The notes under the pieces are model-generated. The model ran no database searches and was not told where the DNA came from. It worked only from the letters and a program-made list of their open reading frames with translations. Below are positions 302 to 29,926 of a stretch of 29,926 nucleotides of DNA, in pieces. The DNA comes from Candidatus Omnitrophota bacterium (GTDB taxonomy: Bacteria > Omnitrophota > Gorgyraeia > Duberdicusellales > 4484-171), in contig JAIPHU010000014.1 of the NCBI GenBank assembly GCA_021735045.1, forward strand, positions 1-29,926. The letters are read 5' to 3'. Made by a program: the position numbers and the translations under genes. Position 1 is the first letter of the stretch, and each line of letters starts with the position of its first letter.

Positions 302-312
302 AAAGGGCGAAT

Positions 313-469
313 GATACAAGAGACAAAAGGAAATAAACAATAAACAAAGGGAGAATAGACAATAAACAAATTACAAATTACAAACAATATCCAATAGACA
401 ATATACAAACCAGAAGCTATATGCTTTTTTGATATCCACTTGTAATTTGGGATTTGTATATTGGAATTT
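313..469 (+). repeat. Interspersed intergenic element, copy A (A/C-rich heptamer arm, central hairpin with T-run, G/T-rich heptamer arm)
   Basis: Aligns without gaps to 6622..6778 with 3 mismatches in 157 nt (330/6639, 351/6660, 390/6699). The left arm reads CAAATTA CAAATTA CAAACAA TATCCAA TAGACAA TATACAA. The right arm reads TTGTAAT TTGGGAT TTGTATA TTGGAAT. Confidence 0.9.
411..430 (+). terminator. Weak intrinsic-terminator-like hairpin inside repeat copy A
   Basis: CAGAAGC-TATAT-GCTTTTTT: a short stem (AGC/GCT extended by A-T and G-T pairs) followed by a 6-T run, about 110 nt after the stop of the upstream + gene. The stem is short and AT-rich. Confidence 0.3.
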
Positions 470-527
470 GTTTACATCTTGTATCTTGGTTATTTCGATT
501 GTAAACATATTAATAAGGGAGGAGTAA

Positions 528-893: not shown

Positions 894-1201
894 TAAATAA
901 TTGCATTAAGTATAAAGGCACTGCGCTAAAGAATTCGGCTTAGTGCCATAAATAAAGGTATTCGCTAAATAATTGCATTAAGTATAAAGGCACTGCGCTA
1001 AAGAATTCGGCTTAGTGCCATAAATAAAGGTATTCGCTAAATAATTGCATTAAGTATAAAGGCACTGCGCCGAGTAATTCGGCTTAGTGCCATTAAAAAT
1101 AAAGGTATTCGCTAAATAATTGCATTAAGTATAAAGGCACTGCGCCGAGTAATTCGGCTTAGTGCCATTAAAAATAAAGGTATTCGCTAAATAATTGCAT
1201 T
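894..1201 (+). repeat. Tandem array 1 of a 72/75-bp hairpin-containing unit (4 full units plus an 11-nt partial unit)
   Basis: Units 897-968 and 969-1040 are identical (72 bp). Units 1041-1115 and 1116-1190 are identical (75 bp). A partial unit covers 1191-1201. Each 75-bp unit holds the hairpin GGCACT GC GCCGA GTAAT TCGGC TT AGTGCC (e.g. 1061-1091). Every reading frame on both strands has a stop within one unit. Confidence 0.95.
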
Positions 1202-1218
1202 TTTAATGGAGGTAAGTT

Positions 1219-5055: not shown

Positions 5056-5688
5056 ATGTTAAAACTTATTTATAAAGAGTTAAGGCATCATATCCGATTT
5101 ACTATTTTTGGAGCCATTACTGGAATTATGGTTATGTTTTTTTTCAAAAATTTACCTGCGGCAATCTCTTATAATATATTTTATATTTTGCATCCTATAC
5201 ATGTGCTGCTAAGTGCATTAGTTACAACCTCGATGTATTCTTTCTACAGTTGCCCTGTCTCAAAACGTAAGTGTAATGTTTGGTTTTTACTGGTAATTGG
5301 TTATTTTGGAGCAATAGGCATTGCGACTTTATCAGATTGTATTATTCCCTATTTAGCTGAAATCTTACTGGGATTACCTAACCGGGAAATTCACTTAGGT
5401 TTCATTGAAAAATGGTGGTTGGTTAATCCTTTGGCAATTTTGGGGGTAGCGATTGCTTATTTTTGGCCGCGGACTAAATTTCCCCATGCCGGGCATGTAT
5501 TGTTAAGCACTTGGGCCTCGCTTTTTCATATTATTATGGCCTTAGGGAAAGAACTTAATCCGTGGTTATATTTGGCTATTTTTGTCTTTTTATTTATAGC
5601 TGTTTGGTTACCTTGTTGTATAAGTGATATAGTTTTTCCGCTTTTGTTTGTAAAAGAAAAAAATGAAGAGGTTCATCAGCACAAATAA
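5056..5688 (+). CDS. Polytopic membrane protein with conserved His motifs (possible metal transport; function unknown)
   Basis: About 6 hydrophobic segments plus His-containing motifs (HPIHVLLS, FPHAGHVLLS, LFHII). I prefer the ATG at 5056 over the TTG at 5047 given by the track. Confidence 0.5.
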   Translation: MLKLIYKELRHHIRFTIFGAITGIMVMFFFKNLPAAISYNIFYILHPIHVLLSALVTTSMYSFYSCPVSKRKCNVWFLLVIGYFGAIGIATLSDCIIPYLAEILLGLPNREIHLGFIEKWWLVNPLAILGVAIAYFWPRTKFPHAGHVLLSTWASLFHIIMALGKELNPWLYLAIFVFLFIAVWLPCCISDIVFPLLFVKEKNEEVHQHK

Positions 5689-5949: not shown

Positions 5950-6645
5950 ATGAATGCGATAACTGCTGGACAGATGAAAAAAGTTGATAAGGCTGCAATG
6001 GATGAGTTTGGAATTCCTTCTTTAATCTTGATGGAAAATGCTGGAAGAGCTGCTGCTGACATTGCTTATAAGATGCTTATAGATAAAAAAGGAAAAGTAA
6101 TTTGCATTTGCGGTAAAGGAAATAATGGCGGCGATGGTTTTGTTTGCGCAAGACATCTTATCAATAAGGGAATCAATATCCTAGTTTTTTTAACCTGTAG
6201 CCGGGATAGATTAAAAGGCGATGCTAAAATAAATTTTTCTATTTTGGAAAAAATAAAGGTCCCCATTTATGAGTTAACCAAAAAAGATGATTTCACAGAC
6301 TTAAAAAATGAAATTATAAACTCACAATTAGTAGTTGATGCAATATTTGGAATAGGTATTACAGGTAAAATAAAGGAGCCTTATTCAGAAATCATAGAAA
6401 CAATCAATAAAAATAAGAATGAAACTTTAGCACTGGATATTCCTTCTGGGTTAGATGCAACAGATGGAGTCCCTTTAGGTAAATGCATAAAAGCTAATAG
6501 AACAGCGACTTTTGCAGCTCCTAAAACAGGCCTTGTGACAAAAGAGGGCCCTGAGTTTTGTGGAGAGGTTATTGTGGTAGATATAGCTATCCCTAAACAG
6601 CTCTTGGGGAGAAAAACGAAAGATACAAGAGACAAAAGAAAATAA
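5950..6645 (+). CDS. nnrE: NAD(P)H-hydrate epimerase (stand-alone YjeF N-terminal domain)
   Basis: Motifs GIPSLILMENAGRAAA, GKGNNGGDGFVCARHL, DAIFGIGITG and LDIPSGLDATDG. No C-terminal dehydratase domain is present. The last 8 codons and the stop lie inside repeat copy B. Confidence 0.85.
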   Translation: MNAITAGQMKKVDKAAMDEFGIPSLILMENAGRAAADIAYKMLIDKKGKVICICGKGNNGGDGFVCARHLINKGINILVFLTCSRDRLKGDAKINFSILEKIKVPIYELTKKDDFTDLKNEIINSQLVVDAIFGIGITGKIKEPYSEIIETINKNKNETLALDIPSGLDATDGVPLGKCIKANRTATFAAPKTGLVTKEGPEFCGEVIVVDIAIPKQLLGRKTKDTRDKRK

Positions 6646-6778
6646 ACAATAAACAAAGGAAGAATAGACAATAAACAAATTACAAATTACAAACAATACC
6701 CAATAGACAATATACAAACCAGAAGCTATATGCTTTTTTGATATCCACTTGTAATTTGGGATTTGTATATTGGAATTT
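6622..6778 (+). repeat. Interspersed intergenic element, copy B
   Basis: 154 of 157 nt identical to 313..469. It overlaps the 3' end of nnrE (stop 6643-6645) and ends 3 nt before the map ATG (6782). It contains the same hairpin with T-run at 6720-6739. Confidence 0.9.
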
Positions 6779-6781
6779 ATT

Positions 6782-10855: not shown

Positions 10856-10864
10856 GTTAAGAAC

Positions 10865-27041: not shown

Positions 27042-27186
27042 AAAATTACAAATTACAAATAATAAATTCCAAACAAATTACAAATCTCAAATTACAATTA
27101 ATAAAATGCCATAATTCTATTTGTAATTTTGGTATTTAATATTGTATATTGTTTGTAATTTGGAATTTATGTATTGGAATTTATTG
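27042..27186 (+). repeat. Interspersed intergenic element, diverged copy C
   Basis: Shares the left motif AAATTACAAATTACAAA(T/C)AATA and the right terminus TTGTAATTTGG(A/G)ATTT..GTAT(A)TTGGAATTTATT with copies A and B. It has the same A/C-rich then G/T-rich architecture and fills the convergent gap between smc and the GGDEF gene. Confidence 0.6.
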
Positions 27187-28585: not shown

Positions 28586-29614
28586 ATGGAAAAAGATAAT
28601 TTAGCAGCAGCTAACTACGATTTTAAAATTCCTAAAGAATTGATCGCTCAGTCTCCTAGGCGTCCTCGTGATAAATCACGTCTTTTAGTTTTAGATAGAA
28701 AAAGTAAAGAGTTAGATGAAAAAGTATTTTCCGATATTGTTAATTTCTTTCAAAAGGGAGATTGTTTAGTTTTAAATAACACTAAAGTTTTTAAAGCGAG
28801 AATTTTTGGTAAAAAAGAAACAGGAGCTAAAATTGAGATATTTTTACTGCAAGATTTAGAAAAAGGAGTTTGGCAATGTTTAGTCAAGCCGGCAAAAAGA
28901 GCAAAAATAGGCAGCAAAGTCTTTTTTTTAGAAAATTTTCAAGCCGAAGTCAAAGAAAGAACCGAGAAAGGATTATTTATAGTTCAATTTCAGCCTCAAG
29001 ACATAAAAAAGTTGATTGAAAATGCAGGTAAAACACCGCTTCCTCCTTACATTAAAAAAGAATCAGAGTTAGAGAGTTATCAAACTGTTTATGCCAAAAA
29101 TACGGGGGCAGTAGCTGCGCCTACAGCGGGCTTACATTTTACAAAAAGTTTGATTGATAATTTAGAAAAAAAAGGAGTTAAAATAATTCATCTTACTCTT
29201 CACTGTGGCCTGGGCACTTTTCAGCCGATAAAAGAAAAAAATATTCGAGATCACCAGATGGCAGAAGAATATCTAGAAATATCAAAAAAAACAGCAGAAA
29301 TTATAAATAGAGCTAAATCAGAGAATAAAAAAATATTTGCCGTAGGTACTACTGCGGTAAGAAGCCTAGAAAGTGCTGCTAATAACAACTCTCAACTAAC
29401 TGATTATCAGGGCCAAACTAGTCTTTATATAATTCCAGGCTATAAGTTTAAGATAGTAGATGCTTTAATTACTAACTTTCATACTCCTTTATCTACTAAT
29501 TTAGTTTTAGTTTCTTCATTTTCCTCTTTGGAATTAATAAAAAAAGCTTATTGTTATGCCCAAAAAAATAAATTTCGTTTTTTTAGTTTTGGTGATGCAA
29601 TGATAATCATCTAA
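28586..29614 (+). CDS. queA: S-adenosylmethionine:tRNA ribosyltransferase-isomerase
   Basis: YDFKIPKELIAQSPRRPRDKSRLLVL, TPLPPYIK, YQTVYA, AAPTAGLHFT, VGTTAVRSLES and LITNFHTPLSTNL. Confidence 0.93.
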   Translation: MEKDNLAAANYDFKIPKELIAQSPRRPRDKSRLLVLDRKSKELDEKVFSDIVNFFQKGDCLVLNNTKVFKARIFGKKETGAKIEIFLLQDLEKGVWQCLVKPAKRAKIGSKVFFLENFQAEVKERTEKGLFIVQFQPQDIKKLIENAGKTPLPPYIKKESELESYQTVYAKNTGAVAAPTAGLHFTKSLIDNLEKKGVKIIHLTLHCGLGTFQPIKEKNIRDHQMAEEYLEISKKTAEIINRAKSENKKIFAVGTTAVRSLESAANNNSQLTDYQGQTSLYIIPGYKFKIVDALITNFHTPLSTNLVLVSSFSSLELIKKAYCYAQKNKFRFFSFGDAMIII

Positions 29615-29749: not shown

Positions 29750-29778
29750 TTGACTCTTGGGTCTATTTTTAATATAAT
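29750..29778 (+). promoter_or_regulatory. Near-perfect sigma70 promoter driving tandem array 2
   Basis: TTGACT (29750-29755), a 17-nt spacer, then TATAAT (29773-29778). The first repeat hairpin starts 20 nt after the -10, and no ORF follows. Confidence 0.6.
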
Positions 29779-29790
29779 AACAGTTTACCA

Positions 29791-29926
29791 AGTACAAGAC
29801 ACTTCGCCGAGTAATTCGGCTTAAGTGTCATTAAAAATAAAGGTATTCGCTAAATAATTGCATTAAGTATAAGACACTACGCCGAGTAATTCGGCTTAAG
29901 TGTCATTAAAAATAAAGGTATTCGCT
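29791..29926 (+). repeat. Tandem array 2 of the same 75-bp unit (1 full unit plus 61 nt, truncated by the window end)
   Basis: Period is 75 bp (29791 vs 29866). The hairpin GACACTT C GCCGA GTAAT TCGGC TT AAGTGTC spans 29798-29829. The linker ATTAAAAATAAAGGTATTCGCTAAATAATTGCATTAAGTATAA is identical to the array 1 75-bp units. Confidence 0.9.

Follow-up and report, generated by a model that had tools for sequence, protein, structure and literature searches.

A small interspersed repeat, probably expanded in tandem within an EF-G 5' leader of an Omnitrophota bacterium

A consensus promoter followed by tandem, structured repeat units raises the question of whether the locus encodes an RNA of its own or whether the promoter belongs to another gene. 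We examined such a locus downstream of queA, at the end of a 29,926-nt stretch of contig JAIPHU010000014.1 (assembly GCA_021735045.1) from a Candidatus Omnitrophota bacterium, which we call the window. The units at this end (array 2) are related to those of a further array of the window (array 1). The original prediction had read array 2 as a structured RNA transcribed from a strong dedicated promoter, formally similar to a type III toxin-antitoxin array. We find that the feature is neither a stand-alone RNA gene nor a toxin-antitoxin array, and that array 2 probably arose by tandem expansion of a copy of a small interspersed repeat, specific to this lineage, in the 5' leader of an EF-G gene.

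The promoter hexamers were located where they had been predicted, at 29750-29755 (TTGACT) and 29773-29778 (TATAAT), with a spacer of 17 nt. Their owner was identified from syntenic loci, which were reached via QueA homologues at ~75% identity. In the loci without an array (L007, L008, L010-L012, L013-L018 and L019), queA is followed by a spacer of ~200 nt, by EF-G (NCBIfam NF009381, 849 bits against a cutoff of 583) and then by ychF, purH, folC and mnmE; the short queA-to-EF-G spacer was present in nine array-less loci of relatives, with four distinct sequence types. The promoter block CATTTCATTGACT...TATTTTTAATATAATAACAGTTT was invariant in the six aligned genomes (the window, L009, L007, L019, L011 and L013). 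Four of these six (L007, L019, L011 and L013) carry no array, and the EF-G start codon lies ~35 nt past the -10 box. Thus, the promoter is not dedicated to the repeat: the identical block directly drives EF-G where the array is missing. It is therefore that gene's promoter, and the array has been inserted into the EF-G 5' leader.

The left junction of this insertion was placed at 29789-29792, as the array-less loci L007 and L019 are identical to the window up to ...TTTACCAA and divergent beyond it (alignment A4). An array at this site was found only in the species of the window and in the metagenome-assembled genome (MAG) JAIPHF (L009), with an identical left junction (...TTTACCAA followed by GTACAAGACACT). 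The array of L009 comprises at least four diverged units, with the inner stem GCCAA/TTGGC, the loop GGAAA and six changes in the linker, and those units are homogenised within their array, which indicates concerted evolution. Array 2 is therefore not a chance arrangement, given this diverged array at the same site in a second MAG and the related single copies at other loci. The synteny in the nine relatives' loci suggests that EF-G also lies downstream of array 2, and an EF-G/ychF/purH cluster is present on another contig of the window's own MAGs. L020 (JAIPHF) begins in the middle of EF-G, and L021 and L022 begin further downstream. The expected 3' junction of array 2 would read ...GCATTTTTAAT, then a Shine-Dalgarno (SD) sequence, then the EF-G ATG.

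The 312 bases from the end of queA to the end of the window contain no open reading frame (ORF), as stated in the original prediction, and the equivalent stretch of the sister contig JAIPHE010000015.1 (L001) contains only ORFs of 20-24 aa. Homology to array 1 begins at ~29790 (AAGTAC...), and the hairpins follow each other with a start-to-start distance of 75 nt. The hairpin of unit 1 (P1) reads GACACT tc GCCGA gtaat TCGGC tta AGTGTC, and the unit scored 100.7 bits with our covariance model R1, of whose training set it is a part. The predicted switch of a basal G:C pair to A:T was confirmed (GACACT/AGTGTC in array 2, GGCACT/AGTGCC in array 1). The additional T:A pair (GACACTT/AAGTGTC) was also found, though only in unit 1, since unit 2 has an A/A mismatch at that place. 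The linker, which had been described as identical to that of array 1, is not strictly so: 5 out of 78 alignment columns differ, giving ~94% identity over the unit. Compared with array 1, array 2 has lost an A on the 5' side of the hairpin and gained one on the 3' side of the inner stem; these two changes offset each other, so the unit length remains 75 nt. Array 2 was missed by Tandem Repeats Finder, as the window has room for fewer than two copies of the unit. Extension of the contig was achieved with the sister contig, whose QueA protein is the same as that of the window; it runs 88 nt further, which reveals a third identical unit, and likewise stops within the array. Array 2 thus counts at least three units in JAIPHE and at least four in JAIPHF.

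The repeat combines two helices. In P1, an internal loop (2x2 or similar) separates the basal stem of 6 bp from the inner stem of 5 bp, which is capped by a G-N-A-A-N-like pentaloop. Among eight distinct copies 98.9% of the P1 cells were paired, so the stem is kept in other copies as well, and both sides had changed at 5 out of 11 pairs. When the partner strand was slid by 1-3 columns as a control, pairing fell to 22-38% with zero compensatory pairs. L020 and the first L022 unit have, in place of P1, a 9-bp hairpin unrelated to it (TATTCAACT/AGTTGAATA) but retain the remainder of the module. P2 is an A-U stem in which (C)CAUU[A/G]AAAAU pairs with AUUUUUAAU(GG) around a loop of 23-25 nt. Across the family, conservation is highest in the core of this loop (AGG..., CTAAATA), and the loop reads A-R-A-G-G-T-A-T-n-C-n-C-T-A-A-A-T-A... 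P2 pairing amounted to 97.7%, with double changes at four pairs. Both helices were predicted de novo by RNAalifold on seven modules. In the arrays, each 75-nt unit contains AAGTATAA, P1, the P2 5' strand, the loop and GCATT, in that order, and is flanked by the direct repeat AAATAATTGCATT; the P2 3' strand is found in the last unit only. The units are non-coding, as no ORF of 20 aa or more spans a unit and stops occur in all three sense frames. Non-Watson-Crick pairs, read on the sense strand, comprised seven G.U and one A.C, a bias that would mildly support a constraint acting on the sense-strand RNA.

Array 1 shows how the element meets the downstream gene. It is made up of two 72-nt units (894-1037), two 75-nt units (1038-1187) and a terminal piece, TAAATAATTGCATTTTTAAT, and Tandem Repeats Finder described it with a period of 72, 4.2 copies and 97% matches. 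At the empty site, in L023/L024, the upstream stop TAG is followed by GGAGGTAGATTATG, while at the filled site of the window TAA is followed by the 314-nt insertion and then GGAGGTAAGTTATG. The gene thus has its own native SD and ATG, with the element abutting the SD exactly. The last two P2 pairs of array 1 take the first GG of the SD GGAGG (1208-1212), whose start codon is at 1219.

The same arrangement recurs elsewhere in the lineage. A search with the 22-nt linker matched three contigs of Candidatus Omnitrophota MAGs from one study (the Tobar series) and gave one chance match. Covariance models R1 (unit) and R2 (3' module) were then applied to loci fetched through protein neighbours, and eight distinct loci bearing the element were identified in ~300 kb sampled from related MAGs (Table 1). 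At all eight, the element is sense to the downstream gene. The terminal ...ATTTTTAAT of each copy immediately precedes either an SD (GGAGG or GGGAGG, with 4-7 nt to the ATG) or the mature 5' end of a tRNA; across copies, the 3' end is constant and the 5' end ragged. One unit is present in L002, L004, L013, L019 and L020, two in L022 and four in array 1. The nifU site is empty in L007 (TAA AGGAGG) and in L010.

Table 1. Positions of array 2, array 1 and their neighbours in the window, and sites of the element in related loci
Feature	Position	Strand	Remarks
queA	28586-29614	+	Upstream neighbour of array 2; Pfam Queuosine_synth, E = 3.8e-130
Sigma-70-type promoter TTGACT-17-TATAAT	29750-29778	+	11/12 consensus positions
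Native EF-G 5' leader start (AACAGTTTACCAA)	29779-29791	+	From alignment with array-less relatives
Array 2, unit 1 (75 nt)	29790-29864	+	P1 at 29798-29829, then P2 5' strand and conserved linker ATTAAAAATAAAGGTATTCGCTAAATAATTGCATT
Array 2, unit 2	29865-29926	+	Cut by the window end, complete in L001; P1 at 29873-29904
Array 1 (314-nt insertion)	894-1207	+	Between the stop of a NifX-like gene (TAA, 891-893) and the SD of a 70-aa gene
P1 hairpin, last unit of array 1	1136-1166	+	GGCACT gc GCCGA gtaat TCGGC tt AGTGCC
Other P1 copies of array 1	917-947, 989-1019, 1061-1091	+	Inner stem damaged in 989-1019
P2 helix, terminal unit of array 1	1165-1209	+	CCATTAAAAAT (1165-1175) pairs with ATTTTTAATGG (1199-1209); conserved 23-nt loop
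Family sites			Upstream of EF-G, a small Cys-rich protein gene, ribH, clpP, nifU, rubrerythrin, a LolA-like gene and tRNA-Gly
Single copy, L002	between ribBA and ribH		
Single copy, L004	between tig and clpP		
Single copy, L005	directly abuts tRNA-Gly(CCC)		
nifU copies, L013-18, L019, L022	upstream of nifU		
Further copy, L022	upstream of LolA-like gene		
Copy, L020	upstream of rubrerythrin		Diverged relative at the rubrerythrin site in L007 and L013

The 72-nt units of array 1 (894-1037) were found to be degenerate, with the inner stem GCTAA/TCGGC containing one mismatch and one wobble, and with a P2 5' strand shortened from ATTAAAAAT to ATAAAT by a 3-nt deletion; these units could alternatively form the 7-bp pairing GCGCUAA/UUAGUGC. 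The gene that follows array 1 (1219-1431) encodes a 70-aa Gly-rich and Cys-rich protein with a CxxC...CxxC arrangement, which had no Pfam or NCBIfam match; related MAGs have at least 13 sequences of this protein that reach 90% identity or more. In L022 (10843-10932), a called MMPL-family gene runs into the element and stops at a TAA in the P1 loop (GTAAT, 10859-10861), so there the repeat supplies the last codons of the protein. According to coordinate arithmetic, the sister contig JAIPHE010000015.1 (28,952 nt, corresponding to window ~1063 to 29926) starts in array 1 and ends in array 2. Only a single contig is on record with the NifX-like protein encoded upstream of array 1. These limits and this record identify both arrays as assembly breakpoints.

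Since copies lie between a promoter or an upstream stop and a downstream ribosome-binding site (RBS), always in sense, we infer that the element is co-transcribed in the leader of an mRNA or pre-tRNA and that the constraint acts on the sense-strand RNA. In such a leader, P1 would form a stable interrupted hairpin whose sequence varies while its pairing is maintained, and the P2 3' strand would end directly against the SD of the next gene. By analogy with BOX, ERIC and Correia repeats, for which such effects have been described (PMC3049150), the hairpins may modulate the stability or processing of the leader or the translation initiation of the downstream gene; for BOX, effects on the expression of neighbouring genes have been reported. 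The flanking direct repeat AAATAATTGCATT means that slippage or unequal recombination can amplify the unit, and such tandem amplification accounts for the range from one to at least four units and for the broken short-read assemblies. From the original prediction of a structured RNA on the plus strand, this retains the selected pairing of P1, its position on the sense strand behind a strong promoter and its non-coding nature, and discards the stand-alone character and the dedicated promoter.

Several points weigh against the leader repeat as we describe it. The contigs end inside array 2, and EF-G as its downstream gene is deduced from synteny and from a cluster on a separate contig; transcription through the array and an effect at the RNA level are likewise predictions from sequence. 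The copies are related by descent, therefore the covariation counts overstate the independent events, and the copy next to the tRNA in L005 (GCUGAAAAU/AUUUUCAGC) accounts for three of the four double changes in P2. The inner stem is damaged in two units of array 1. Comparison of folding energy with shuffled sequences, proposed with the original prediction, gave a low value on the plus strand (z = -4.78) and an equally low one on the minus strand (z = -4.28), so it does not discriminate between strands. The orientation bias could stem from the replication strand, because the genes at these loci are co-directional. Finally, SD accessibility computed from base-pairing probabilities showed no consistent difference between filled and empty sites, and sequestration of the SD by P2, which we had considered, was dropped because accessibility was not systematically changed.

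A more ambitious version of this reading has the element as a mobile cis-acting leader that homes just 5' of SDs, with a trans-acting factor binding the P2 loop, so that the copies form a post-transcriptional regulon and the EF-G arrays act as an in-cis amplifier or sponge. It would be based on the constant 3' end, the ragged 5' ends and the closing of P2 on the first GG of the SD, and we give it a rather slight chance. If it were true, the ~100 expected copies would form the regulon, and the arrays in the EF-G leader would be multiplied binding sites.

The reading as a stand-alone repeat RNA, transcribed from its own promoter, processed into unit-sized pieces and acting as a type III-like antitoxin or a protein sponge, appeals to the strong promoter followed by tandem structured units without an ORF, and a terminator could lie past the assembled end of array 2. 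This model is largely refuted and we consider it very improbable, as the promoter is that of EF-G in array-less relatives and as array 1 lies inside an operon, where no promoter or terminator of its own was found; no terminator-like sites were detected between array 1 and the next gene or in the assembled part of array 2. The units of 72-75 nt compare with 31-62 nt for known type III antitoxin repeats, and single copies precede ribH, clpP, nifU and tRNA-Gly. A ToxN-like endoribonuclease had been suggested as the downstream gene; array 1 is followed by the 70-aa Cys-rich protein and array 2, by synteny, by EF-G, neither with a PADLOC match, and nearby matches to ToxN/CptN/TenpN-like or other PADLOC systems numbered zero. 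Unit size, promoter ownership, downstream genes and dispersed single copies thus all disagree with the toxin-antitoxin architecture.

Promoters could instead reside within the repeat, as in Neisseria REP2 or Borrelia IR: each unit would then carry a weak sigma-70-type promoter (TTGAAA or TTAAAA, 16 nt, AATAAT or AATAGT) firing just upstream of the next hairpin or SD, and arrays would be stacked promoters that boost the downstream gene. To this possibility we assign a small chance. A scan found TTAAAA-16-AATAAT (9/12) in every 75-nt unit, and inspection by eye of the variants in L009, L013, L020 and L022 showed a better -35 (TTGAAA) and some kind of -10-like hexamer at 16-18 nt; in the copy abutting tRNA-Gly, transcription would start 2-3 nt ahead of the mature 5' end, and REP2 offers a precedent of two stem-loops and a promoter immediately upstream of genes (PMC3184786). 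However, such sites occurred at about the level of shuffled sequences (3 against 3.0 expected, and 5 against 2.8, sd 1.7), three variants have a -10-like hexamer (AATAGA, AATAAA and AATATA) that does not end in the invariant T, the spacer is conserved more than the hexamers, and part of the -35 is deleted in the 72-nt units. Promoter units also leave the P2 complementarity and the compensatory changes unexplained, and a near-consensus promoter already stands ahead of array 2. The possibility that the element is selfish or neutral DNA (MITE-like, REP-like or a minisatellite), with a hairpin serving single-stranded DNA mobilisation, for example by an IS200/RAYT-type transposase, and with no RNA role, we regard as unlikely, with a small but appreciable chance. 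Filled and empty sites in close relatives, the concerted evolution of copies in one genome, the variable copy number with assemblies breaking in arrays and a RAYT-like Y1 transposase in related genomes are all consistent with it, and covariation of the hairpin would also be expected if a transposase recognised the structure. Nevertheless, the RAYT-like gene is flanked by a different hairpin (GGGGACGTTTCCCTC), and both are absent from the window and from all element-bearing loci; no terminal inverted repeats or clear target-site duplications were seen; and a mobile DNA would hardly predict the sense orientation at eight out of eight loci, a constant 3' end exactly at the SD and wobble pairs tolerated on the sense strand (7 against 1).

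A link to RAYT/IS200 was rejected, since the flanking hairpin differs and the two do not co-occur. Readings as a CsrA-type GGA sponge, as nut-like boxA/boxB or as IHF sites were dropped as well, because by eye the motifs were not conserved across variants.

We also observed other elements in the window and its relatives. The RAYT-like Y1 transposase (184-213 aa) lies between a GGDEF gene and queA in L010/L011 (8037-8591, minus strand) and is also present in L013-L018; it matched NCBIfam REP_Tyr_transpos with 62.8 bits, below the cutoff of 80, and has inverted GGGGACGTTTCCCTC hairpins on its flanks. L009 (5357-8731, JAIPHF) has an extra ORF of 1124 aa, without a Pfam match, between the GGDEF gene and queA. 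The identity matrices of QueA and SMC disagree on the closest genomes, which suggests recombination in this region. A second, unrelated intergenic repeat family was detected at window positions 308-472, 6617-6781 and 27043-27185 and at L010 17060-17260. It forms a long, imperfect, AT-rich hairpin of ~165 nt, in which the 5' arm (ACAAATTACAAA...) is rich in A and C and the 3' arm in T and G. Identity between the first two copies is 97%, and the fold of 300-530 reached -42.5 kcal/mol (z = -3.7). An RBS follows immediately after two of the copies, and one copy is located between the convergent genes for SMC and GGDEF. In L005 (~5270-5530, minus strand), a direct repeat of ~80 nt comprises the tRNA-Gly(CCC) 3' end and its downstream flank, with copies ~110 nt apart, and looks like an att-type duplication left by an integrating element.

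One lesson of the locus is that a consensus promoter before structured tandem repeats need not mark an RNA gene, and that array-less relatives reveal the owner of the promoter. The repeat family also explains the fragmentation of the MAGs at these positions. If the strict placement at the RBS held genome-wide, it would provide a useful natural system for studying the influence of inserted leader structures on expression and the target choice of repeats.

No earlier description of such repeats was found in a full-text literature search for Omnitrophota and intergenic repeats. Rfam gave zero matches at the gathering score in the whole window, and only chance matches far below threshold at E up to 5. 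No match to the element was found in phages and plasmids by blastn, and the scan of viral_contigs gave zero matches; a 20-nt linker scan of metagenome_contigs gave one chance match without a hairpin (L006), and a genome_contigs match in a Bacteroides coding region (L003) was also due to chance. A CRISPR array was rejected, as the linker in the place of the spacer is conserved more than any other part and repetition extends over the full 75-nt period. Type III toxin-antitoxin loci (ToxI, CptI and TenpI), where a short palindromic terminator precedes the endoribonuclease toxin gene, resemble array 2 in that structured non-coding repeats are arrayed in tandem behind a promoter; their antitoxin repeats span 31-62, 40-48 and 39-57 nt in the toxIN, cptIN and tenpIN families, respectively (PMC3401426), whereas units of 72 and 75 nt fall outside all three ranges. 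REP/BIME sequences share with the element their nature as transcribed extragenic palindromes with a high copy number and stem covariation between subfamilies, as well as a RAYT-like gene in related genomes. However, the element has neither a GTAG-type 5' tetranucleotide nor inverted REP pairs, and while a REP hairpin both flanks its single-copy RAYT gene and is dispersed, the GGGGACGTTTCCCTC hairpin was found only beside the RAYT-like gene.

The closest kinds are pneumococcal BOX, Neisseria REP2/Borrelia IR and MIRU, none of which shares sequence with the element and each of which differs from it in at least one defining feature. BOX of Streptococcus pneumoniae (boxA, boxB in variable number and boxC) is likewise a composite intergenic repeat with an internal module that varies in tandem; stem-loops are predicted when it is co-transcribed, and larger arrays vary more in length (PMC3049150). 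BOX has no sequence similarity to the Omnitrophota element and occurs in both orientations, whereas the latter is sense at eight out of eight loci and ends at the SD. BOX also has terminal inverted repeats and a proposed mobilising insertion sequence, neither of which was found here: by eye, no terminal inverted repeats are present at the ends of single copies, and no transposase lies near either array in the window. Neisseria REP2 (CREN) and Borrelia IR repeats, which measure ~100-150 nt, also directly precede ORFs and have two internal stem-loops close to their 5' end (PMC3184786). REP2/IR carry their own promoter, RBS and ATG, while the SD and ATG of the Omnitrophota element are native and a promoter within it is weakly suggested; REP2, moreover, is not amplified in tandem. 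MIRU, finally, consist of 40-100-bp units, often in tandem, in the intergenic regions of operons, where they are co-transcribed in polycistronic mRNA, and they too show filled and empty sites between relatives and variable copy numbers (PMC3184786). The small ORFs of MIRU overlap the stop and start codons of the flanking genes; no ORF of 20 aa or more spans the Omnitrophota unit, and the stops that we saw by eye in all three of its sense frames make translational bridging impossible. Among these families, the element stands as a small interspersed bacterial repeat of two covarying helices, found in sense orientation only, in the uncultivated phylum Omnitrophota.

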